64,000 nt of DNA from Candidatus Omnitrophota bacterium (GCA_028715785.1 JAQURC010000002.1:76322-140321), one strand, 5' to 3'. Shown: positions 17,982 through 59,409, counted from the first letter of the stretch. The notes: a model not told the origin generated them from the sequence alone. Translations and numbers: made by a program.

Positions 17982-19058
17982 GTGAAAAAGTTATTAAATA
18001 GCTTGTTAATCGCGGGTTTGTTAATAGGGGTGACGGGAGTGAATTCCATTTTTGCCGAAGGAAAGAAACCAAAAGTCATTCGTCTGGGTTCTGCTTATGG
18101 CGGGGGTTACGGCAAACCCTTTTCATCGGGAACTATCGGTATTGTTCACGCGAAAGGATTGTTAGAAGAAGAGTTTAAAAAAGACGGCGTCAAAATCGAC
18201 TGGTATTTTTTTAAAGGCGCCGGCCCGGCTACAAATGAGGCTATTGCCAATAATACCCTTGATTTTGGCTATATCGGAGATTTGCCGTCAATCGTTGGAA
18301 GGGCAGGCGGATTAAAGACTAAACTTCTTGCTGCCGGCTCGGTGCGGGCGGAAATTTACATATTGATTCCGGCGGATTCCCCGGTTACCTCAATAAAGGA
18401 ATTAAAAGGTAAAAAGGTGGGAATATTTAAGGGGATAAATTCTCATCTGGGAATTACCAGGATTTTAGAAGCAAATGGTTTAACGGAAAAGGATTTGAAA
18501 GTATATAACTTAGGGACAGCAGATATTGAGGCGGCTCTGGCTTCTAAAGATATCGATGCCGGCGGAGGCGGCTTGCGTTTGCGTGACTTAGGTCTGGTGA
18601 AAGTACTTCTTTCGACAAATCCCGTCCTGCCAGGGATAGATGCTTCATTAAAAGTGCCGATTCAATGGAAACCTACAGGCGGGCTATTTGTTACGGAGAA
18701 ATTTGCTAATGAATATCCGGATATAGTTAAACGGGTGGTAAGGGTTTATGTGGAGGCCGCAAAGTGGGGCTCAGAGGAGAAAAACAGGGAAGAAGTGTTT
18801 CAACTCTGGTCAAAAGTGGGAACACCTCTTAGTCAAATTAAAGAAACTAATGCTGGTAAAACGCTGAAACAGTTAAATACCCCGCTTATTGACGGATTTT
18901 ATGTTACTCATTATAAAGACGCCTTGCTTTATAGTAAAGAACATAAATTTATCAGGAATACTTTTGATGTGGATAGTTGGATAGATAGAAGCTATTTGAA
19001 TGCGGCGTTAAAAGAATTGGGATTAGAGAATTTTTGGCAACCATACGAAGCAGAATAA
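17982..19058 (+). CDS. ABC transporter substrate-binding protein, NitT/TauT (SsuA/TauA-like) family
   Basis: Signal peptide; SsuA-like blocks (KVIRLGSAYGGGYGKPF, DFGYIGDLPSIVGRAGG). Confidence 0.7.
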   Translation: MKKLLNSLLIAGLLIGVTGVNSIFAEGKKPKVIRLGSAYGGGYGKPFSSGTIGIVHAKGLLEEEFKKDGVKIDWYFFKGAGPATNEAIANNTLDFGYIGDLPSIVGRAGGLKTKLLAAGSVRAEIYILIPADSPVTSIKELKGKKVGIFKGINSHLGITRILEANGLTEKDLKVYNLGTADIEAALASKDIDAGGGGLRLRDLGLVKVLLSTNPVLPGIDASLKVPIQWKPTGGLFVTEKFANEYPDIVKRVVRVYVEAAKWGSEEKNREEVFQLWSKVGTPLSQIKETNAGKTLKQLNTPLIDGFYVTHYKDALLYSKEHKFIRNTFDVDSWIDRSYLNAALKELGLENFWQPYEAE

Positions 19059-19072
19059 AAGGAGAAGAGAAA

Positions 19073-20377
19073 ATGAGCAAGAATAACGGTGAATTGAATT
19101 TAAAGCAAGTTGCGGAGAAACACACGGATTTCCCTCAACTAATCATTCGTAAAATTGATACCGCTCTTCGTGGGGTAAATTTTACTGAAAGGGCCGTGAA
19201 AAAAGCTTGGGATTTAAATGCTTTGTATGACGCGGCTCCTGAGCTTGAAACAAAGGGAGCAGGGTTAGTTTTTGGCGGGGCTTTATTCAGAGATGGGACT
19301 TTAGTGCAGGGGGTTGAATCCATATCTTCGCTGCGGGGTAGAATTTTAAGAAAAGATAAAGCCGCGCCCTATACCTTAGATGCGATTGACGGAAAATTAT
19401 GGCTCTTAGACGATAAACAGCCTGTGGAGGAGATTGATTTTGTGCCTATTCCCGAATATTACGGTAAAAAAACCAGCCGGGGAACTCCCATGATTAAGGT
19501 GGTAAGGACAGGCCCGCCGGACTGCTTGAATGTCAATGTATATGGTTACTGCCTTTTTTGGAAAGAAAAACTTCCCTGCAAATATTGCTGCTTTCAGGAG
19601 AGTTTATTGCGGGAGGGCCTGCACACGCAGGAAAGTTTAGACGATATTTATGAAACAGTAAGCGAGGCGTTAAAAGAAAAGGGCAGGTGGACAGGAATGC
19701 GTTTGATTGCCGGCTCTGATTTTAGGGGGAAAACTCCTTACGAGAATGATTCTAACGAGTATATCAGGGTATTAAAAACATTGCAGAGATCGTTTGGCAC
19801 GAAAAATATTTACGCGCGGTTAGTTGCCAGCGCCGTTCCCAAAGAACATCTTGAGAGGGTAAAAGAAGCGGGCGCAGTTGCTTATGAGCCGCATATCGAA
19901 GTATGGGATAAAAAAGTATTCGGGAAAATCTGCCCCGGAAAGGCAAAGTTTTTTGGATGGCAGTATTGGGTGGATAATATTATTGACGCGGTAAAGGTTT
20001 TCGGCAGAGGCAATGTTTGCTCCCAGCTTGTAGCTGGAGCCGAATTGGCCCAGCCATATGGCTTTAAAAGCGTTGAGAAAGCCTTAAAATCAAATCTTGA
20101 GGGCGTTGAATTTCTTGCCCAGCACGGAGCGAATGTTTCTTTTTGCGTCCTCTGGGTAGGTCAGGGTTCCGTATTTTTCGCGGAAAAGCAAACAGCGGCG
20201 CCATTAGAATATTATGTGAGATTAGCCAAGGGAATCCGGGATATCCGTAAAAAATATAAGCTGGCCGTGGATTTCAACGACTACAGGCGCTGCGCGATTC
20301 ATCCGGATACTGATTTAGCCAGGCTTGACTATAACGAAGTATCGTATGAGCCTGTTGGGGCAGGGGAGGGAAGATAA
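19073..20377 (+). CDS. uncharacterized Cys-rich protein, paralog 1 (Cx8Cx2C motif; possible Fe-S / radical-SAM-like)
   Basis: 434 aa; CLFWKEKLPCKYCC motif and further Cys conserved with the paralog at 20909 (about 45% identity; shared DYYGKKTSRG, ICPGK, GFK[ST][IV][DE][EK]ALKSN). Confidence 0.5.
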   Translation: MSKNNGELNLKQVAEKHTDFPQLIIRKIDTALRGVNFTERAVKKAWDLNALYDAAPELETKGAGLVFGGALFRDGTLVQGVESISSLRGRILRKDKAAPYTLDAIDGKLWLLDDKQPVEEIDFVPIPEYYGKKTSRGTPMIKVVRTGPPDCLNVNVYGYCLFWKEKLPCKYCCFQESLLREGLHTQESLDDIYETVSEALKEKGRWTGMRLIAGSDFRGKTPYENDSNEYIRVLKTLQRSFGTKNIYARLVASAVPKEHLERVKEAGAVAYEPHIEVWDKKVFGKICPGKAKFFGWQYWVDNIIDAVKVFGRGNVCSQLVAGAELAQPYGFKSVEKALKSNLEGVEFLAQHGANVSFCVLWVGQGSVFFAEKQTAAPLEYYVRLAKGIRDIRKKYKLAVDFNDYRRCAIHPDTDLARLDYNEVSYEPVGAGEGR

Positions 20378-20412
20378 CTTAATAAGTAAAAAAATTTTAA
20401 GGAGGAATAAAA

Positions 20413-20886
20413 ATGTCTAAATTGTCAAAAGAAGTGGTGGATTTAATTAAAGATTGTGCATCAATCAAAATTGTTACTACGACCGATGAAAACGGCAATC
20501 CGCATGCCGCTTTTAAAGGGTGCTTAACCGTGCTTGAGGACGGGAATTTGGCTTTTGCCGAGACCCTTGAGGGCTCACAAAACAATATTAACCTGGTGCG
20601 CAGCCTTTGGTTTGATAAAAATGTGCAGCTAACCGTCCGGGGCAAGGACGGGAAAACCTTTCAGATTAAAGGTAAGCCGTATAAGTATAGTTATACAGGG
20701 CCGCTATATAAGAAGTTTTATCTTGCGGCAAGAAAAAAACGGGGGCAGGATTCTGAGATTTCCGGCGTATGGGTTATTGTGCCGGAAGAAGTCAGAGATG
20801 AAACCTACGAGGCAAGGAAAAAAATAGAGGATGAACTGCACCCGTTCTTTAGGCATTTTGACCGGGAGAGTGTTTTGGTTAAATAA
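20413..20886 (+). CDS. pyridoxamine-5'-phosphate-oxidase-like FMN-binding split-barrel protein
   Basis: 157 aa; N-terminal KEVVDLIKDCASIKIVTTTDENGNPH typical of the PNPOx-like family. Confidence 0.6.
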   Translation: MSKLSKEVVDLIKDCASIKIVTTTDENGNPHAAFKGCLTVLEDGNLAFAETLEGSQNNINLVRSLWFDKNVQLTVRGKDGKTFQIKGKPYKYSYTGPLYKKFYLAARKKRGQDSEISGVWVIVPEEVRDETYEARKKIEDELHPFFRHFDRESVLVK

Positions 20887-20908
20887 AATTATGAAAGGGG
20901 AAAATAGA

Positions 20909-22159
20909 ATGGGTAAGAATAACGGTAAGTTAGGCGTGGAAGAGTTGGTAAGCAAGTACCCGGATATATCACGGTTTATTATCCTTAAACTTGATGTGCA
21001 AAAAAGGGGGATTGAGTTAACGGAAAACGCCCAGGAAGCGGTTCAGGATTCTAAGTATCGTTTCAGGCCCAGGAGCGCGGCTTATAGCGGAGACGACGGT
21101 TCTAAGAAAGCTAATCCGGGGCCGTTATTACTGCGTGACGGCACAACTGTGCTTAGCGGGGCGGGGCTTAAATACGAAGATCCTTATAGAGTGCATCATG
21201 TTGATGGCAAATTTTTTCTTTTTGATAAAGGTAAAAAAATTGAGGAGGTGGATTTTACTCCCAGGCCGGATTATTACGGCAAAAAAACAAGCCGGGGAGT
21301 CCCTATGGAATCAATTGCTTCGGCCCGGCCGCAGCGGTTAGATATTTCTCCTTACCGTTATTGCCATTTTTGGGATACGGGTGATCAGTGCAAATATTGC
21401 GCGTTTTTCACGGATATGGAAGAACAAAGGCAATTAGCGGATAAGAATTTTCCGAAGGTTATTGATCCGGAAGATATTTATGAAACAGTAAGGGAAGCTT
21501 TAAAAGAGCCGGGGAGGATTTCACAGATAAACCTGACTGCCGGCGCGGATTACAGCGGCGATCCGCCTTTTGAAAATGAAGTGAACCGGTATATAAAGGT
21601 TTTGCAGGCTATCGGCAGGAATTTTAAGTCAAGAAGGTTTCCCAGCCAGCTAATTGCGCCTGCGTATACTAAAAGGCAGATTAAAAGAATTTATGACGAA
21701 ACTGGCCTTTCTTCATACTGCCCGGATATTGAGGTATGGGATGAAAAGTTGTTTAAGTGGATCTGCCCGGGAAAAGAAAAATGGCTGGGAAGGGACCATT
21801 GGATAAAGTCAGCTCTTGACGCGGTTGAGATTTTTGGAAAAGGCAATGTTTATACAAACTTTGTCGCGGGGGCAGAGACCGCTAAACCTTATGGGTTTAA
21901 GACCATTGACGAAGCTTTGAAGTCCAATTTTGAAGCCTGCGAATTTTTTTCTAAACACGGTGTAGTGTTTTTAAGCTTAGTTTGGCGGCCGTGGAAAAGT
22001 TCCAAATTTGCCGGCCAGAAACAGCCGCCCCTTGAATATTATGTGCGGCTGGTAAAAGGACTACACGAAATAAGGAAAGCACATGGCCTGACTTCTGACA
22101 ATGATGATTACAAACATTGCGGTAACCATGGGGACAGCGATTTAGAAAGAATAGACTAA
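20909..22159 (+). CDS. uncharacterized Cys-rich protein, paralog 2 (Cx8Cx2C)
   Basis: 416 aa; CHFWDTGDQCKYC; homologous throughout to the 19073 gene. Confidence 0.5.
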   Translation: MGKNNGKLGVEELVSKYPDISRFIILKLDVQKRGIELTENAQEAVQDSKYRFRPRSAAYSGDDGSKKANPGPLLLRDGTTVLSGAGLKYEDPYRVHHVDGKFFLFDKGKKIEEVDFTPRPDYYGKKTSRGVPMESIASARPQRLDISPYRYCHFWDTGDQCKYCAFFTDMEEQRQLADKNFPKVIDPEDIYETVREALKEPGRISQINLTAGADYSGDPPFENEVNRYIKVLQAIGRNFKSRRFPSQLIAPAYTKRQIKRIYDETGLSSYCPDIEVWDEKLFKWICPGKEKWLGRDHWIKSALDAVEIFGKGNVYTNFVAGAETAKPYGFKTIDEALKSNFEACEFFSKHGVVFLSLVWRPWKSSKFAGQKQPPLEYYVRLVKGLHEIRKAHGLTSDNDDYKHCGNHGDSDLERID

Positions 22160-22176
22160 AATAAGGAGAAAACAAA

Positions 22177-22668
22177 ATGTCAAAGTTACCTAAAGAATTA
22201 GTTGATTTATTAAAAGACCGCGAAAGCGTAAAAGTGTTGGCAACATTAAATCAGGACGGTTCTCCGCATACAGTAATTAAAGGTTCATTAACTACTTTGG
22301 ACGGAGAAGCGATAGCTTTAAGTGAAGGGCTGGACACTTATCAGAGCAATAAGAATTTAGTAAGAAGTATCTGGTTCGATAAATCCGTATCAATTAATAT
22401 TACTAAGGGGCCGGTCAGCTATCAAATAAAAGGCAAACCTTATAAATGTTTGATTACCGGAGAGATTTTTAAACAGTTTCTTCTTAAAGCCAGAGAAAAA
22501 AAAGGGCCTGACGCGGATATTGCCGCGGTTTGGATAATTACGCCTGAGGAAGTCAGGAATGAATCTCCGGCAATTCGAAGAAAAGAAGAGGAAGAAAAAA
22601 GGCCGTATTTTAACCGGCATCTAGACAGGGAAAGTTTAATAAATAGAGAGCTTTCTTCAGCAAGATAA
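22177..22668 (+). CDS. PNPOx-like FMN-binding split-barrel protein (paralog of the 20413 gene)
   Basis: 163 aa; KELVDLLKDRESVKVLATLNQDGSPH; same domain order as 20413. Confidence 0.6.
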   Translation: MSKLPKELVDLLKDRESVKVLATLNQDGSPHTVIKGSLTTLDGEAIALSEGLDTYQSNKNLVRSIWFDKSVSINITKGPVSYQIKGKPYKCLITGEIFKQFLLKAREKKGPDADIAAVWIITPEEVRNESPAIRRKEEEEKRPYFNRHLDRESLINRELSSAR

Positions 22669-53026: not shown

Positions 53027-53704
53027 ATGAGCAGTTTGCAAGTAGTGTTATTAGAACCTGCGCGTGTAGTTTTGGCTCAAATCAGCCAATTCATGGTCAA
53101 CGCATTACTGGTGATCATTATTTTGATCATCGGCTGGTTACTTTCCAAAGTTATTAAATCTATCGTCAGTAAGGCCCTTAAACTAGTCAAGATCGATGAT
53201 ATTTCTAAACGTATTGAACTTGATAAGCTGTTTAGCAAGGGCGGAATAACATATTCCTTATCCGATTTAATCGCTGTAATTTGCTATTGGCTCGGGCTTT
53301 TGATAACCTTTATGGTCGCAATAAACGCCGTGGGCGTGACCATTGCCGCTGATTTGTTAAAACAAGTTATCCTTTATATCCCCAATGTTATTTCAGCTTT
53401 GTTCATCCTTGTCCTGGGGATGTTCGTGTCGACTTTATTGAAAAATATTGTGCGGACTGCGGTAAATAACGCCGGATTAGGCCACGGCAGGCTCCTGGCC
53501 CAGTTGGTGGAGACAGTGGTTATTGTTTTTGCAATTTTCGTGGCGCTAGAGCAGCTGCAAATCGGTATCCATATAACCGAATTGACCGTTTCGATAATTT
53601 TAGGTGCCGTGGGATTAGGCCTGGCCCTGGCTTTTGGTTTAGGGTGCAAAGATATCGCCGGAAGGTTTGTGGCCGAAACTATAGAAAAATTAAAAAAGAA
53701 ATAA
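53027..53704 (+). CDS. membrane protein with repeated conserved-TM-helix units (MscS-N-terminal-like)
   Basis: 225 aa; several amphipathic or TM segments; no enzymatic motifs. Confidence 0.4.
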   Translation: MSSLQVVLLEPARVVLAQISQFMVNALLVIIILIIGWLLSKVIKSIVSKALKLVKIDDISKRIELDKLFSKGGITYSLSDLIAVICYWLGLLITFMVAINAVGVTIAADLLKQVILYIPNVISALFILVLGMFVSTLLKNIVRTAVNNAGLGHGRLLAQLVETVVIVFAIFVALEQLQIGIHITELTVSIILGAVGLGLALAFGLGCKDIAGRFVAETIEKLKKK

Positions 53705-53765: not shown

Positions 53766-53775
53766 GTGTAAAACA

Positions 53776-55185
53776 ATGAAAAAAAAGAAACCTTTGCACG
53801 CTGGTAATCCCGGCGTATCCGGTACCCGCATTGTCGTCGCCAGCATGGTCGGCACGACGATCGAGTTCTACGATTTTTACATCTATGCTACGGCTGCGGT
53901 TTCGGTATTCCCGCTTCTTTTCTTCCCGAAGGCTGATGCGGGAGCATCTCTCCTTGCGTCCATGGCAACTTTTGGTGTTGCCTTTGTGGCGCGGCCGATC
54001 GGCTCGGTATTCTTCGGCCATTTTGGGGACCGGATCGGGCGTAAAGCAACTCTTGTCGGGTCGCTTTTGACTATGGGGATCGCCACATTCCTTATCGGCC
54101 TGCTGCCTACGGTCATGCGCATCGGCTTGCTGGCCCCCGCGTTGCTGACGATTTTGCGTTTCTGCCAGGGGCTTGGGCTTGGCGGTGAATGGTCGGGAGC
54201 GGCTCTCTTGGCGACCGAGACTGCCGCAGAGGGAAAAAGAGCAAGGGCGGCGATGTGGCCGCAATTGGGCGCGCCATTTGGGTTTATTCTGGCCAACGGT
54301 TCCTTCTTGCTGCTCACCATGTTCTTTAACTATAATTCTGCCGAGGCTGGCCTGCGGGGCGATTTTCTTGAGTGGGGCTGGCGGATCCCGTTTTTGGCTT
54401 CGGTTGTTATGGTGGCAGTGGGGTTGTATGTGCGATTTAAACTTGATGAGACCCCGGTATTTGCCCGGGCGCTGGCCCGCGGCGAAAAACTCAAAATCCC
54501 CTTGGCCGTTGCGATGAAGCATCATCTTAAGGAGCTTCTGCAGGGTGCTTTTATTATGCTTGCTACGTACGGTTTGTTTTATTTGATGACCACTTGGATA
54601 CTTTCCTACGCAATCGGGTCAACAGAGTTTGGTTTTTTAGGCATTGGTTACCGTGGTTTTCTAGTGCTGCAGCTTCTTTCCGTGCTTTTATTCGCGGGGA
54701 TGATCCCGGTTGCCGGTTGGCTGGCGGATAGGTACGGCCGCCGCGGTTTCCTTTTGCTGGTGACCGCTGCCATTATCCTCTTTGGTTTAACATTTAAATT
54801 TTTTCTTGATCCTGCGGTTATGGGAACAGGGAACGGGGCGAATATGGGGCTTATGCTGTTCTTTTTATGCATCGGTATGACGCTGATGGGCCTGACTTTT
54901 GGCCCGATGTCGGCAGTCCTGCCGGAATTGTTTCCCACGAATGTGCGCTATACCGGCTCGGGTATTTCCTATAACATGTCCTCTATTCTGGGCGCTGCCT
55001 TGACCCCCTTTGCGGCTGTCTGGCTTGCCCGTAATCACGGTGTTGGCGCTGTCGGGCTGTATCTTTCGGCGCTGGGAGTGTTGACATTTATTGCCCTGTG
55101 GTTTTCCAAAGAGACCAAGCATACCAACCTTGATACGCGGGAGGAAAGAAAAGCGGCCGTAGGCATTGAAACGACCTCGCCGTAG
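53776..55185 (+). CDS. MFS transporter, metabolite:H+ symporter (MHS/ProP-like) family; markedly GC-rich
   Basis: TIEFYDFYIYATAAV N-terminal signature and 12 TM helices. Local GC is about 58% versus about 44% in the flanks. The long antisense ORF at 53374..54525 is a GC artefact. Confidence 0.7.
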   Translation: MKKKKPLHAGNPGVSGTRIVVASMVGTTIEFYDFYIYATAAVSVFPLLFFPKADAGASLLASMATFGVAFVARPIGSVFFGHFGDRIGRKATLVGSLLTMGIATFLIGLLPTVMRIGLLAPALLTILRFCQGLGLGGEWSGAALLATETAAEGKRARAAMWPQLGAPFGFILANGSFLLLTMFFNYNSAEAGLRGDFLEWGWRIPFLASVVMVAVGLYVRFKLDETPVFARALARGEKLKIPLAVAMKHHLKELLQGAFIMLATYGLFYLMTTWILSYAIGSTEFGFLGIGYRGFLVLQLLSVLLFAGMIPVAGWLADRYGRRGFLLLVTAAIILFGLTFKFFLDPAVMGTGNGANMGLMLFFLCIGMTLMGLTFGPMSAVLPELFPTNVRYTGSGISYNMSSILGAALTPFAAVWLARNHGVGAVGLYLSALGVLTFIALWFSKETKHTNLDTREERKAAVGIETTSP

Positions 55186-55257
55186 GAAAACGTAAACACA
55201 GAATAAAGGAATTTTCGACACTGGTTATATTTTTTTTGGTTTTAATAAGGATAAGTT

Positions 55258-56088
55258 ATGAAAAATAAGATTACTGAAATACCGTCAAAGGGCGAAATTA
55301 TCATTTACCGGACCAAAGACAAGAAAATCCAGCTTGAAGTTAAATTGGAGCAGGAAACGGTTTGGCTTTCTCAGAAACAAATTGCCGATTTGTTTATTAA
55401 AGATATCCGGACGATTAATGAGCATATACAGAACATATTCAAAGAAAAGGAGTTAAAGAAAAATTCAGTTATCCGGAATTTCCGGATAACTGCCGCTGAT
55501 GGTAAAAGCTACGAGACAAATTTTTATAATCTTGATGTAATTATTTCGGTTGGGTATCGTATAAAATCTCAAAACGGCACACGGTTCCGTATTTGGGCTA
55601 CGAATGTGCTAAGAAGGCATCTTATAGATGGCTACACATTGAATGAAAAGCGATTAAAGGAGCAAACTCTAAAACTTCAGGCCTTGCAACGGGCAGTAAA
55701 GCTTATTGGCAGCATGAAGGATCGTAAACAACTTGAATATAAAGAGGCCATGGGGTTGCTTGAAGTTATCAGCGATTATAATTACGCGCTTGGATTATTA
55801 GACGACTACGATTATAAGCGGCTTAAGATAGGCAAAACGTCAAAAGAAGAGAAATTTGTCTTAAGCTACGAATTAGCGATAGAAGCCGTAGACAAGCTCA
55901 AGGAAAGAATCGGCACTTCAGATCTCTTCGGTACAGAGCGGGATAAATCGTTTAAGAGCTCGGTATCTTCGATTTATCAGACGTTTGACGGGAAAGATTT
56001 ATATCCAAGCATTGAGGAGAAGGCAGCTAATCTTCTTTATTTTATTGTCAAAAATCATTCTTTTGTTGATGGCAATAGGAATAATTAA
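55258..56088 (+). CDS. RhuM-family protein with Fic/Doc domain truncated inside the Fic motif
   Basis: N-terminus IIIYRTKDKKIQLEVKLEQETVWLSQKQIADLF ... YNLDVIISVGYRIKSQNGTRFRIWATNVL is the RhuM signature. The C-terminus ends ...LLYFIVKNHSFVDGNRNN* = HxFxDGN(K)R and then stops. Confidence 0.6.
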   Translation: MKNKITEIPSKGEIIIYRTKDKKIQLEVKLEQETVWLSQKQIADLFIKDIRTINEHIQNIFKEKELKKNSVIRNFRITAADGKSYETNFYNLDVIISVGYRIKSQNGTRFRIWATNVLRRHLIDGYTLNEKRLKEQTLKLQALQRAVKLIGSMKDRKQLEYKEAMGLLEVISDYNYALGLLDDYDYKRLKIGKTSKEEKFVLSYELAIEAVDKLKERIGTSDLFGTERDKSFKSSVSSIYQTFDGKDLYPSIEEKAANLLYFIVKNHSFVDGNRNN

Positions 56089-56120
56089 GACTGTGAAAAA
56101 AATCATTACACTTATATAAA

Positions 56121-56291
56121 ATGAATCGCAAAATTTTCCTAAAAACTTTCGGTTGCCAGATGGACAAATTGTTACACTCGGATTTTACACTCCTTGAGAG
56201 AATGGTATAATAAGAATTAATTATTTGCGGTATAAGGAGTTATAGAAAACCGCAAAGAGAAAACCGAACCTAAGTGGGAAGGGGAGAAGCG
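56121..56291 (+). repeat. direct repeat unit A: degenerate miaB 5' end + 48-bp core + leader
   Basis: ATGAATCGCAAAATTTTCCTAAAAACTTTCGGTTGCCAGATG (compare miaB ATGAACAAAAAAGTATTTATACGCACTTTCGGCTGCCAGATG), then TGGACAAATTGTTACACTCGGATTTTACACTCCTTGAGAGAATGGTAT. The unit repeats 760 bp downstream. Confidence 0.7.
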
Positions 56292-56891
56292 ATGAAAAAT
56301 ACGTTTTCGACTTTTTTCGTAGTATTTGTAACGCTTGTATTTGTCATAATTTGTTTGGGGCGGGCTGGAGTATATGCTCACTGCGATACTATGGGCGGTC
56401 CCGTGGTAAAAGACGCGAAAATGGCGTTAGAGAAAAAAGACGTTACGCCTGTTTTAAAGTGGGTTAGCAAGGAAAAAGTGCCTGAGGTTCGCGCAGCATT
56501 TGAAGCTGTCCTTCTTGAAAGAACTAAAAGTCCTGAAGCGAAAGAAAAAGTGGATATGAAATTTTTCGAGACCCTTGTCCGGATCCATCGTGAGGGGGAG
56601 GGCGTCACTTTCACTGGCATAAAGCCGGCAGATGCTATAGATCCCATTGAGGCAGAAACTGACAAGGCTTTAGAGGTTGGGTCAGTTGATGATCTGACAA
56701 CCGAGATGTCGCGGCATTTGACCAGCAGCATTAAAGAACGCTTCACCCGGGTTCTTGATAAAGAGAAACACATGAATGATAGCGTTGAGGCCGGGAGAGA
56801 ATATGTCGAGGCGTATGTGGAATATCTGCATTACGTAGTAGGTGTACATAAAGCGATAGCAGGAGAAGACGAACATCACCATGAAGAATAA
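56292..56891 (+). CDS. secreted protein with HCDTMGGPVV motif and His-rich C-terminus (possible metal-binding); cassette 1
   Basis: Signal peptide MKNTFSTFFVVFVTLVFVIICLG; ends GEDEHHHEE. Confidence 0.4.
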   Translation: MKNTFSTFFVVFVTLVFVIICLGRAGVYAHCDTMGGPVVKDAKMALEKKDVTPVLKWVSKEKVPEVRAAFEAVLLERTKSPEAKEKVDMKFFETLVRIHREGEGVTFTGIKPADAIDPIEAETDKALEVGSVDDLTTEMSRHLTSSIKERFTRVLDKEKHMNDSVEAGREYVEAYVEYLHYVVGVHKAIAGEDEHHHEE

Positions 56892-57041
56892 GGTTTTCAT
56901 CCGGACCCTGGGATGGCTGATGGACAAATTGTTACACTCGGATTTTACGCTCCTTGAGAGAATGGTATTATGTAGATTAACTGTAGGCAGAATAAAGGGT
57001 TATAAAGACTCATAGAAAGTGAAGCGAACGTAAGTGAGAAT
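56884..57041 (+). repeat. direct repeat unit B (47/48 identical core; more degraded miaB 5' remnant)
   Basis: AAGGTTTTCATCCGGACCCTGGGATGGCTGATG + TGGACAAATTGTTACACTCGGATTTTACGCTCCTTGAGAGAATGGTAT + homologous leader. Confidence 0.7.
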
Positions 57042-58154
57042 ATGACATTAATTGCAGGATTCTTAAAGGATGAATGCCCTATATTGATGGGAGATTTATT
57101 AATTTCCTCTCAAGGCGATTCCAATGATAAAGAGATCGTTTTCCCAACTGTCGGGAAGATTTCTAATAAAGATATTTCTTGTGGAGAGTATAAGCCGACC
57201 GGTTTTTGTCAAAAAGTAAATCTTTTAAGTCCGAAATTGGCTGTTGCATGGGCTGGAGCAAAGATATATGCATCGAGTTTTATGAAAGAAGTCATCAAGT
57301 GCAATTTACATAATACCCCTTCAAGGGAATCGCTATCCAAAGTGTTTAACGAGATTGATAAAGGTCAAGGAAAGTTTTCGATTATAGGATTATACAGAAA
57401 CGGAACAGAAATGATAGTTTTTGAGTTTAATACCGGTGGCAATGGTTCGCTGCCTTTAGGTTTTAAATGGTTTAAAGCAGATGGCACTGGTTATAAATTT
57501 CTCTTGGAAAGCCTTTCCAATTTAACAAATAGTAATATAACATCTGGACAGCCAAACAAATTGGAACGGGCAATATCTGAAGCAGTACATCTTATTACGG
57601 ATTTGATCTCGCAAGAGATTCTTACTGCAATTCCGCTCCAAAATCTGTTTGGAGCAGGTTATGAAATAGTGCATCCTTTAAGGAGAGATTTAGCAAAATT
57701 TTCTAATCTAACTTATTTATTTTGGAAGGCAGAAGAAGAAACTCAAGGAACTTGGAAGCTTCAACCATTTCCTTTTTTAGGGTCAAATTATTCATACTAT
57801 AAAGATATTTTAGTTATAAGAAGTATTCGTTTATCATCGAATGTGAAGCCTTTTTCTTGTAAAGTCGATAGTGATGAGTTGCACGTTATCTCACCAACAT
57901 ATCGCACTGTAGTTAAAGATGAGCTCGTTGGCTATGCTCCTGTTTCGCTTAATTCTAGTTGGATATGCAATACTTTTTTATGGAAAGATCATAATGGCAA
58001 TATGGGCGCATTTGCTACCTTTGGTCGTTATGTCTCACAATCGCCACCTCTAATATGGAAGAACGAGTTTAAGAGCGACGAAGGTATCGATGTTAATGCT
58101 CAATTTGTGCAATCATCTATTTCTAAAATAGCGGCACAGGCCTTAGAGAGATAA
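57042..58154 (+). CDS. hypothetical protein, AT-rich orphan (cassette 2)
   Basis: 370 aa with no motifs I recognise. Noticeably lower GC than the neighbours. Confidence 0.4.
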   Translation: MTLIAGFLKDECPILMGDLLISSQGDSNDKEIVFPTVGKISNKDISCGEYKPTGFCQKVNLLSPKLAVAWAGAKIYASSFMKEVIKCNLHNTPSRESLSKVFNEIDKGQGKFSIIGLYRNGTEMIVFEFNTGGNGSLPLGFKWFKADGTGYKFLLESLSNLTNSNITSGQPNKLERAISEAVHLITDLISQEILTAIPLQNLFGAGYEIVHPLRRDLAKFSNLTYLFWKAEEETQGTWKLQPFPFLGSNYSYYKDILVIRSIRLSSNVKPFSCKVDSDELHVISPTYRTVVKDELVGYAPVSLNSSWICNTFLWKDHNGNMGAFATFGRYVSQSPPLIWKNEFKSDEGIDVNAQFVQSSISKIAAQALER

Positions 58155-58245
58155 AATATATACGCAGTCGTGCTAATGTACGGTTCTCTGGATAACTTTT
58201 GACAGGTATTAAAAATTTATGCAATTCTAATTAATTTCATAAGTT

Positions 58246-59409
58246 ATGAACAAAAAAGTATTTATACGCACTTTCGGCTGCCAGATGAATGAGCGGGATT
58301 CGGAGGTGATCGGCGGCCTGCTGAAAAAATCAGGGTATCAAATCAGCGCAACCGATAAAGAGGCGGATGTTATTATTTTTAACACCTGTTCCGTGCGCAA
58401 GCACGCTGAAGACAGGGTATGGAGTTTAATCGGCAGTTATAAGGGCTCTAAAATAATCGGTTTAGTTGGGTGTATGGCCCAGAATTACAAAGAAAAGGCT
58501 TTTGAGCGGGATGCCAATATCAGTTTTGTTGTCGGGCCGCAGGATATCGATAAGATTCCGGAGGTGCTCGGGAAAATATTAGAAACAAGGGGACAGTCCC
58601 CGAAAAACGGGGACAGTCCCCTTTTATTGGAACGCAAGATTTGGGAGGCAGATAGTAGTATTCGACCAGAGGAGATTTACCACACTGGTTTTTATCAGGA
58701 TAAAAATCATGCCTATGTAGTTATTTCCGAGGGGTGCTCTAATTTTTGTTCTTATTGCGTAGTGCCTTATGTGCGCGGCCCGCTGCGCCACCGCAAAAGT
58801 AAAGACATACTGGCAGAAATTCAGGGCGCCATCGCGCAGGGAATCACTAGGGTGACTCTTTTAGGCCAGAATGTTAATGCCTATCTGGATGGAAAAATTA
58901 ATTTTAATAAGCTGCTTGCGCAGGTTAACGGCCTTACCGGTTTAAAGGAGTTTGATTTTTTTACCTCCCACCCCAAGGATGCTAACATTGATTCTTTTAA
59001 AGCAATCCGTGACCTGGATAAATTAGTTAAACGGCTGCATCTACCGTTGCAGTCAGGCTCCGACAGGATCCTTAAACTGATGAACCGCGGGTATCTGGCA
59101 AAAGAATACTTGGAATTAATCGATTCTTATCGTAAAATTGTTAAAGGCGGCTTGTTGACTACGGATATTATCGTAGGGTTTCCGACAGAAACCGAAAAAG
59201 AGTTCAAGGAAACTTGCAATCTGGTTAAAGAGACAGAGTTTAACGCGGCTTATCTTTTTAAATATTCATCCAGGCCGGGGACGCAGGCGGAAAAAATTGC
59301 CGGAGATCTAAGCCGGGAGGAAAAAGAAAAACGGCACAAACAGATCCTGGATTTACAGAGGGATATCTCAAAAAAATTAAGGCATAAGCGCTCGCATGAA
59401 AAAAAATAA
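58246..59409 (+). CDS. miaB: MiaB-type radical-SAM methylthiotransferase lacking a recognizable C-terminal TRAM domain
   Basis: MNKKVFIRTFGCQMNERDSE, EGCSNFCSYCVVPYVRG. 387 aa; ends soon after the radical-SAM core. Confidence 0.7.
   Translation: MNKKVFIRTFGCQMNERDSEVIGGLLKKSGYQISATDKEADVIIFNTCSVRKHAEDRVWSLIGSYKGSKIIGLVGCMAQNYKEKAFERDANISFVVGPQDIDKIPEVLGKILETRGQSPKNGDSPLLLERKIWEADSSIRPEEIYHTGFYQDKNHAYVVISEGCSNFCSYCVVPYVRGPLRHRKSKDILAEIQGAIAQGITRVTLLGQNVNAYLDGKINFNKLLAQVNGLTGLKEFDFFTSHPKDANIDSFKAIRDLDKLVKRLHLPLQSGSDRILKLMNRGYLAKEYLELIDSYRKIVKGGLLTTDIIVGFPTETEKEFKETCNLVKETEFNAAYLFKYSSRPGTQAEKIAGDLSREEKEKRHKQILDLQRDISKKLRHKRSHEKK

Follow-up and report, generated by a model that had tools for sequence, protein, structure and literature searches.

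Repeated cassette insertion at the 5' end of miaB in Candidatus Omnitrophota and a candidate attachment site for large serine recombinases

The 5' end of prfC is replaced by the islands of the SXT/R391 type. Serine-integrase prophages are found in coding genes as well, namely SPbeta, inserted by SprA into spsM, and A118 in comK, where the gene is split and is restored on excision. The tycheposons of Prochlorococcus consist of tandem cargo modules between partial copies of the target gene and include recombinase-less satellites; their targets are mostly tRNA genes and their enzymes are tyrosine recombinases. In this work, a 64-kb stretch of DNA from a Candidatus Omnitrophota bacterium (JAQURC010000002.1:76322-140321, hereafter the window, with positions counted from its first letter) was analyzed, in which two repeat units beginning with miaB-like starts were located upstream of miaB, a gene of tRNA modification. 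It was concluded that the miaB start is a docking site and that mobile DNA was inserted there at least two times within the window, each insertion leaving a displaced miaB start and one cargo gene.

The dusA-specific islands integrate into the 5' end of a gene and replace it (PMC4482086). The miaB locus resembled the dusA and SXT type in that the insertion took place in the 5' coding region of a housekeeping gene, a new 5' end was supplied and the old one was left as a remnant. Thus, a native start was stranded at 56121, the new start was located at 58246, and the remnant arms had diverged in the manner of coding sequence. However, islands of that type are large and carry tyrosine integrases in cis, whereas only serine integrases were found at the miaB junction and most units had no recombinase. 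The likeness to SPbeta and A118 lay in the apparent integration by a large serine recombinase (LSR) into a coding gene, with the integrase gene at the element end beside the attachment (att) site. Unlike the targets of those prophages, miaB stays intact, because the element carries a surrogate start. Tandem accretion, partial target copies and recombinase-less units were common to the tycheposons and the miaB locus, the difference being the miaB target and the serine recombinases at the site.

Composite islands belonging to the staphylococcal cassette chromosome (SCC) at rlmH/orfX include pseudo-SCC modules without ccr (PMC7029136). Features shared with SCC were large serine recombinases, a single target in the end of a conserved RNA-modification gene, serial repeat-bounded modules, and many modules that lacked a recombinase and carried accessory cargo. 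However, the target is the 3' end of rlmH there and the 5' end of miaB here, so that a start codon and about 11 working codons have to be brought in by each element. The cassettes described here also differed in often being single genes with a shared promoter and leader, and in belonging to the phylum Omnitrophota. The locus was thus not an SCC in the strict sense, its target being miaB and its hosts Omnitrophota. The nearest solved-structure matches of its recombinases were the TP901-1 and SPbeta SprA integrases. Further, a growing, co-oriented and mostly single-gene array at one site, with the newest cassette beside the insertion point and the recombinase outside the cassettes, was reminiscent of an integron, but no IntI and no attI or attC hairpins were found here, each cassette had its own putative promoter, and an essential-type gene was rebuilt at each insertion. 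The integron reading was rejected on three counts, namely the lack of a tyrosine recombinase in the scanned open reading frames (ORFs), the lack of inverted repeats bounding the cassettes, and the promoter-like site in each cassette.

Repeat units and the probable crossover point

The region was read on both strands. A direct-repeat search returned a 160-nt repeat at 56121-56280 and 56881-57040 (73% identity, spacing 760 bp), as well as a 42-nt stretch, 56121-56162, that matched the true miaB start (58246-58287) at 71%. Both units were composed of a miaB-like start, a 48-bp core and a related leader. The core was identical at 47 of its 48 positions; as a 47-nt pattern (56162-56208 and 56922-56968, one base different) it was counted exactly two times in the 64 kb, and none of 100 shuffled sequences contained it. 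In the three-way alignment, the miaB-like ATG...CAGATG block was present at all three places, and the core and leader in the two units only. The remnants were translated as MNRKIFLKTFGCQM and MKNKVFIRTLGWLM, as compared with MNKKVFIRTFGCQM for the true MiaB. An earlier note on this DNA had described these two spaced units and an intact miaB beyond them; the repeat search and the alignment confirmed the former, and the gene starting at 58246 was found to encode both UPF0004 and Radical_SAM.

The junctions were compared with a set of about 45 related Omnitrophota loci (L-numbers), and units carrying the core were designated class A. The window features described below all lie on the plus strand. 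The segment 56089-56155 comprised native Fic-miaB intergenic DNA and, with its ATG at 56121, the native miaB start in its displaced position (B arm); it ended at the TG of Cys codon 12 (56154-56155) and was read as the left half of attL-type junction 1. The class A element-side half-site (P', CCAGATGGACAAATTGTTACACTCGG) and then a putative promoter followed at 56156-56211, as judged by the core match, the promoter scan and 26 distinct copies elsewhere. Leader 1 (56212-56291) was conserved in primary sequence (ATAAGGAGTTA, AACCGAACNTAAGTG) in the alignment of 26 units and had no conserved RNA structure. Beyond the first cargo gene, a second displaced miaB-like start (MKNKVFIRTLG.., 56881-56915, ending at the TG of 56914-56915) was read as the right-end arm (P) of cassette 1. 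The second class A P' half-site, promoter and leader occupied 56916-57041, and this leader fell into the 'AACTG' subgroup together with those of L001, L007, L016 and L026. The right end of cassette 2 (58155-58280) consisted of a 91-nt spacer and the working miaB start (P arm, ATG at 58246) up to the TG at 58279-58280. The miaB body (B' side and the remainder of the gene, 58281-59409) was 93% identical to P0001 and was followed by SPOR/TPR, miaA and hflX; an exact match to the MiaB of the window was found in no record.

It was proposed that an incoming circle would carry an attP whose left arm, P, is a surrogate miaB start and whose right arm, P', is specific to the element. Exchange at the central TG would bring the element in after the old miaB start and before the body of the gene, and the old start, fused to P', would be stranded upstream as an attL-type junction. 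The P arm of the element would become the new working miaB start, re-creating a usable site. As a consequence, later arrivals would also insert next to miaB, and the array would grow with the newest cassette nearest miaB. Unit 1 would then represent the native miaB start joined to a class A P'. In unit 2, the P arm belonging to the DUF6448 cassette (cassette 1) would be joined to the class A P' belonging to the cassette with the Ntn-hydrolase-like gene (cassette 2), and the present miaB start would be the P arm of the latter.

The remnant arms left of the Cys-codon TG had an entropy of 0.64, 0.61 and 1.70 bits at codon positions 1, 2 and 3, respectively. Since they vary mainly at third positions, the remnants appear to have evolved as working MiaB N-termini. 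An nhmmer profile of the units retrieved further miaB-like remnants that lacked the core and were fused to other left ends, designated classes B, C, D and E. The sequence of class B is ..GATGGAY RYRCTATAGG..; it was found, for example, directly 5' of the L009 Fic gene, three times in L045, and also in L005, L021 and L025. Class C reads ..TGGCC TTWTGYTTCGGCTTTACAATG and was found in L013, L002/L008, L024 and L043; class D occurred in L042 and L021, and class E in L051. Judged by these matches, the miaB piece is the real common element of all left-end classes.

To the right of the TG, most class A copies had a shared non-miaB sequence. In 11 of 24 copies this was GCCGATGGAC, giving TGGCCG as compared with TG(C/T)CAG of miaB, and the conserved non-miaB sequence TGGCCGATGGAC after the TG in 11 of 24 copies completed a dyad, TCGGC-TG-GCCGA. 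The P' arms of classes A, B and D had in common an inner GCCGATGG/GCCGTTGG motif that mirrored the TCGGC of the left arm around the TG.

The breakpoint was located by comparison with sister genomes. Near-identical DNA was found to the right of the TG and unrelated DNA to the left when the present miaB start was aligned with that of L040. In L040 itself, the attR had the form P-TG-B', where the 3' end of an LSR gene with its surrogate start was fused to the miaB body. The head of the same contig held a 157-nt, 100% identical copy of P, in which the identity stopped exactly after ..TTCGGCTG and the sequence continued into a class C P', as expected of an attP-like junction. In L043, another contig of the metagenome-assembled genome (MAG) of L040, which is the closest relative of the window, the attL consisted of the native start ATGAATCGCAAAATTTTCCTAAAAACTTTCGGCTG, the TG and then a class C P'. 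Hence, the attL of L043, the attR of L040 and the attP-like junction all switched right after ..TTCGGCTG. Additionally, the class A unit of L010 switched from CCAGATGAAT to GCCGATGGAC right after the same TG when compared with L040. The TG breakpoint was thus shown, at the level of aligned sequence, for class C and for one class A unit (L010). Because the same native start is fused to a class C end in L043, window unit 1 was shown to hold the native miaB start of the lineage.

The attP-like junction of L040 was observed as a perfect 157-nt inverted repeat (1-457 vs 2765-2921) at the contig head. The class C element end comprised a conserved 60-nt segment, about 400 nt of GC-rich hairpins, and then a promoter and a gene encoding a helix-turn-helix (HTH)-like protein (MQDKIIKLFYDN..); such ends were located at L013 2060-2778, L008 10978-11274, L024 11667-12017 and L040 1-300. 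Contigs often broke at this end, which points to an element present in several copies.

The earlier note had named tandem duplication as the alternative; it was considered here as a local duplication of a promoter/leader segment together with the miaB start, with later divergence. The 47/48 identity of the cores would agree with it, as would the spacer GAGAGAATGG, which was common to both window cores and absent from other copies; this window-specific spacer suggests some local gene conversion or homogenisation. However, the leader of unit 1 was more similar to those of L006 (0.85) and L019 (0.83) than to that of unit 2 (0.71), which ranked only 19th of 24, and tandem duplication was rejected on this ground. 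The unit 2 remnant was likewise nearest to the L006 (0.79) and L024 (0.76) remnants, its similarity to unit 1 being 0.60, and each remnant lay nearer to those of other genomes. In addition, the two units flanked unrelated genes of different GC content, and the same unit type was found at the same site in many genomes with other cargo. Duplication was regarded as extremely unlikely.

The class A family in related genomes

The 27-mer of the core was found in two other Omnitrophota MAGs and the 23-mer in 24 metagenome contigs, all of the loci being of Omnitrophota type. At least 26 distinct copies of the class A core and leader were collected; a miaB-like start stood in register before each of them, and unrelated cargo genes came after. 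The external copies had been fetched with an exact 23-mer of the core, which is therefore invariant by construction, and the near-identity of the core across genomes is partly a matter of ascertainment. Conservation extended to features that the retrieval had not selected for, namely the GATGGAC on the flank, the promoter hexamers and the motifs of the leader. Viral contigs scanned with the core, remnant, leader, class B and class C patterns gave nothing, or chance matches without a miaB context.

A conserved backbone was recognised, consisting of purC, an LPG-synthase-like gene, YacP, a 225-aa mechanosensitive (MS)-channel-like gene, a variable stretch, miaB, SPOR/TPR, miaA and hflX. Class A cargo was always co-oriented with miaB and differed almost everywhere; it included hemerythrin, DUF6901, glycosyltransferases, deaminases, an antiporter, helicases, TPR proteins, methyltransferases and radical-SAM proteins. 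An empty site was found in L055 (MS-channel gene, terminator, miaB) and a near-empty one in L044. Single cassettes were present in L019 and L020, and arrays in L003, L010, L021 and L045, that of L045 being long and containing defence genes; two-unit class A arrays, as in the window, were seen in L003 and L010. The cargo stop codon abutted or overlapped the next miaB-like ATG in window cassette 1, L003, L018 and L020. Empty sites in relatives had been proposed as a check of the earlier note, and L055 provided one, L044 being near-empty. A second proposed check, the core next to other cassettes or integrases, was answered in part: the core stood beside many different cargo genes, and no recombinase was found among the class A cargo in the loci scanned. 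The claim of repeated site-specific integration at the miaB 5' end, with displacement of the earlier start, was supported as the best explanation by this occupancy series together with the LSR elements at the junction and the core with its varied cargo.

It was also considered that no site-specific step takes place today, and that homologous recombination swaps cassettes through the core and leader on one side and miaB on the other, the remnants being ancient scars. The core and leader were more conserved than the cargo or the flanks and could act as a homology arm; between L003 and L020, for example, they were 83% identical, as compared with an average of about 67% for the shared cargo. The homologous 370/379-aa cargo of the window and L042 was 67% identical and the flanks 86-87%. 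However, swapping leaves unexplained both the tandem units with different coding-type miaB starts and the LSR genes at the junction, and the homologous cargo of L042 had a class D left end rather than a class A one. We regard this explanation as quite unlikely.

Several other genes were observed in the variable region. Homologous HTH_17/MerR (excisionase-like) genes of 130-139 aa lay directly 5' of the class A units in two loci unrelated to each other, L006 (381-800) and L023 (3998-4390), and are possible directionality factors or regulators. A TopIB-like protein was encoded directly upstream of a class A unit in L007 (8680-9756). An IS3-family transposase gene ran into a remnant in L014 (3-707), and an IS200/IS605 Y1 transposase was found in L051 (5168-5830).

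The best promoter-like site of the region in a consensus scan was located in unit 1. It consisted of TTTACA (56184-56189), 16 nt, and TGgTATAAT with the -10 hexamer at 56206-56211, matching at 11 of 12 positions and having an extended -10. The equivalent site of unit 2 (56944-56971) read TTTACG (56944-56949) and TGgTATTAT (-10 at 56966-56971). The 48-bp core would accordingly combine a P' half-site of about 26 bp with what we infer to be a strong sigma-70-type promoter, which probably drives the cargo and, through the cargo, miaB.

The leader was conserved as primary sequence (ATAAnGAGTTA, AACCGAACGTAAGTG). A riboswitch or structured cis-regulatory leader was rejected, since an Rfam scan of 55000-58600 gave the leader no match (only chance matches below family thresholds in the E<=5 listing) and RNAalifold on 25 leaders predicted 0 pairs and no consensus structure. 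The palindrome CACTCC..GGAGTG in the promoter spacer was dismissed as a structure as well; it showed no covariation, and a G/A change in its 3' arm was uncompensated. A small leader ORF (M-E-I-G-K-E-G-T-E-R-K) was not conserved, as it needs GTTATGG and other copies have ACG, AGG or ATA. The remnants were also rejected as conserved upstream ORFs, an in-frame stop being present at the Cys codon in 4 of 24 indel-free copies.

Recombinases at the miaB start and the movement of cassettes

No recombinase was found in the window by LSR tblastn, the ORF list and Pfam analysis of ambiguous ORFs, where most ORFs were judged by their first residues and no tyrosine-recombinase-specific search was made; within these limits, the earlier statement that the window lacks an integrase held. 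By sequence comparison, the missing integrase was identified as an LSR that sister genomes carry at the same site. In L040, L041 and L052, whose MiaB proteins were 93%, 90% and 80% identical to that of the window, respectively, a gene for an LSR of 542-556 aa (Resolvase, Recombinase and Zn_ribbon_recom) was located directly upstream of miaB and overlapped its start. Phage_rep_O, Terminase_2 or MerR-type genes adjoined the LSR genes. The N-terminus of the L040 LSR reads YIRVSTEDQ, containing the catalytic RVST motif; its residues 4-493 were aligned with SPbeta SprA, and the protein also matched the TP901-1 and A118 integrases.

The relatives thus showed an LSR gene at the element end beside the att site, hybrid attL and attR, one central dinucleotide and an imperfect dyad. 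At two other loci, LSR elements had left traces of serial insertion. To the left of the class A unit in L010, the arm was made up of the 3' region of an LSR gene of the L040 type (aa 270-542, 81% identity), and in L051 an L041-type P arm was stranded upstream of a RhuM-Fic cassette. We consider it likely that miaB codons of about 11-12 (ACN TTC GGN TG/C CAG ATG AAT) serve as the attB of integrative elements that use LSRs. We infer that the window units are attL-type junctions at this attB and that an LSR made the class A junctions of the window.

The class A junctions could instead have been made by other machinery (a tyrosine recombinase, an integron-like or Xer-dependent system, or a transposase elsewhere), with the LSR elements merely using the same target. 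The class A P' is unlike that of class C, no LSR was linked in cis to class A, and the HTH_17/MerR genes upstream of the L006 and L023 units and the TopIB-like gene of L007 would all be compatible with this. However, no tyrosine recombinase was found in the scanned class A cargo and neighbour ORFs or in the scanned window ORFs, and neither attC-like hairpins nor terminal inverted repeats were seen. In addition, mirroring of TCGGC around the TG in classes A, B and D is the layout of a serine-integrase site, and the class A junction of L010 breaks at the same TG as class C. Other machinery was judged highly unlikely.

Several observations weigh against an LSR origin of the class A junctions. A direct link to an LSR was seen in class C and in the L041 and L052 types only. 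An element with both an LSR gene and a class A left end was not found, and about 14 class A cassettes seen end to end contained no LSR by tblastn and no other recombinase. Since the class A P' differs from that of class C, the L040-type enzyme may not act on class A. Further, 6 of 24 indel-free class A units, including window unit 1, read TG(C/T)CAGATG before GAC. Either a variant P' or crossover at the second TG would account for this, and the class A crossover position is thus not uniquely fixed. If the P and B arms are near-equivalent, attL and attR would resemble attP and attB, which poses a puzzle of directionality. The attP-like junction of L040 could be an excised or tandem form, or a fold-back assembly artefact, its sequence implying reads that join both element ends. 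All loci of the comparison set are MAG or metagenome contigs, and the attL of the L041 and L052 elements was not located within the fetched flanks.

Two routes were considered for the movement of the recombinase-less cassettes. Class A cassettes may be small elements that lack a recombinase and were captured in trans, and we give this about even odds against a derivation from larger elements. Alternatively, they would be stumps of larger LSR elements or prophages, produced by deletions between an attL-proximal 'moron' gene and the P arm, the latter being kept for miaB. Promoter-bearing genes beside att sites are common in prophages, which was counted for the stump origin. Decay by deletion was seen in L010, where an N-terminally truncated LSR was accompanied by ResIII/HsdR fragments in the second cassette, and L051 had an LSR-type P arm without its LSR. 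However, none of the approximately 14 complete class A cassettes contained LSR debris, which at class A loci was confined to L010, and no class A left end occurred on a full element. A cargo stop codon abutting or overlapping the next miaB-like ATG, as seen in several cassettes, would be a rare outcome of random deletion. A stump origin was therefore regarded as doubtful, though with some weight. Capture in trans was slightly favoured over it because many cassettes are base-compact, with the stop overlapping the next ATG, and because the left end is more constrained than the cargo.

As a tentative extension of trans capture, which we regard as less likely than not, it was proposed that Omnitrophota possess an integron-like capture platform. 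In this reading, small promoter-bearing circles of class A (perhaps also B, D and E) that lack a recombinase and have a minimal attP, each with a surrogate MiaB N-terminus, would be inserted beside miaB by serine integrases that phage-like elements encode elsewhere; the array would grow from the miaB side, and the promoter of every cassette would also feed miaB.

Neighbouring genes, cargo and significance

The gene upstream of unit 1 (55258-56088) was recognised as a RhuM-Fic pseudogene (Pfam RhuM E=8e-25, Fic E=4e-8). Its product ends ...HSFVDGNRNN*, 32 nt before the unit. The earlier note had placed a premature stop inside the catalytic motif about 30 bp before unit 1 and had ascribed the truncation to the first integration event. 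The distance and the end within the motif were correct, but the stop is the native one and is preceded by an internal deletion. By blastn and BLASTP against the full 332-aa gene of L043, this was an in-frame 177-bp deletion with AATA microhomology at 56074-56077. It spans 59 codons, takes out the second half of the HxFxDGNKR motif and leaves the last three codons, the stop and the downstream DNA intact. In L043, the full RhuM-Fic gene was followed by 82 nt (stop, intergenic DNA and native miaB start) that were 99% identical to window positions 56074-56155; truncation by integration was thus not supported, the intact gene having the same downstream DNA. Judged by this comparison, the window gene is a pseudogene inactivated by a deletion separate from the insertion. 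L043 also carried the MS-channel gene, the MFS gene and the full RhuM-Fic upstream of its class C junction. Fic genes recurred as cargo at the miaB hotspot in L001/L009, L043 and L051.

The variable region is bounded on the left by the conserved MS-channel-like gene (53027-53704, 225 aa, PF05552 in homologues). This gene lies directly 5' of miaB at the empty site of L055, and the same synteny was found in L009, L019, L020 and L042-L045. The following major facilitator superfamily (MFS) transporter (53773-55185, Pfam Sugar_tr/MFS_1, GC 0.50-0.59) was read as an accessory gene of the variable region; it occurred also in the sister genomes L043 and, with a frameshift, L042, and was lacking in L044 and L055. 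No recognisable miaB remnant was found next to the MFS gene or upstream of the Fic gene of the window, so the MFS gene may have entered by another route or its scar has decayed. The GC content ranged from 0.34 to 0.59 across 53.7-58.2 kb, as compared with 0.42-0.45 in the flanks, which supports a foreign origin of the whole stretch.

The cargo of cassette 1 (56292-56891) encodes a DUF6448 protein (Pfam E=2.3e-54), and the stop codon of the gene falls within the miaB-like start that follows. The protein, a secreted His-rich one according to the earlier note, is hydrophobic at its N-terminus and His-rich at its C-terminus. The 370-aa cargo of cassette 2 (57042-58154, GC 0.35) belonged to no Pfam family and had been called an orphan; this did not hold, since 64 homologues were found across phyla, one in Desulfosarcina and some in non-miaB, partly plasmid- or phage-like contexts. 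The AlphaFold2 model (predicted local distance difference test score of 89.8) had 20S beta subunits as its top Foldseek matches (E about 1e-6) and a beta-rich C-terminal domain. The N-terminal domain is predicted to have a proteasome-beta/Ntn-hydrolase-like fold, with a near-invariant Thr2.

Every plausible gene of the 64-kb window was on the plus strand. A tandem-duplicated gene pair, a radical-SAM-like gene (447/442 aa) followed by a PNPOx-like gene (157/163 aa), was located at 19034-22668. The palindrome GGGAC(A/T)GTCCC occurred 29 times in 406 kb of Omnitrophota loci, as compared with about 0.8 expected. All matches lay inside miaB where miaB was mapped, usually as pairs 16-20 nt apart and in frame (GDSP/GQSP/GTVP). 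The copy number was 1 to 6; the palindrome was present in the window at 58589-58621 and also in miaB of L001, L019, L040-L042, L044, L051, L052 and L055.

In the literature searched, miaB was nowhere described as a target of serine integrases, and islands of this sort were not reported for Omnitrophota. It was concluded that the miaB site adds a new case to a kind of gene-capture hotspot that is already known and does not represent a new mechanism. As an integration hotspot it is widely used and had not been described before, and the phylum in which it occurs is uncultivated. Candidate attB and attP sequences and three candidate serine integrases were obtained, which could be tested as genome-engineering tools. 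For annotation, short miaB-like ORFs are to be read as scars and the truncated Fic gene as a pseudogene. The locus suggests that a housekeeping gene can serve at its 5' coding end as the target of a serine integrase and yet stay active, since a replacement start comes with the element. Further, the promoter/leader module and the recombinase-less cassettes offer a tractable case of the accumulation of accessory genes for defence, transport and the cell envelope in streamlined environmental bacteria.

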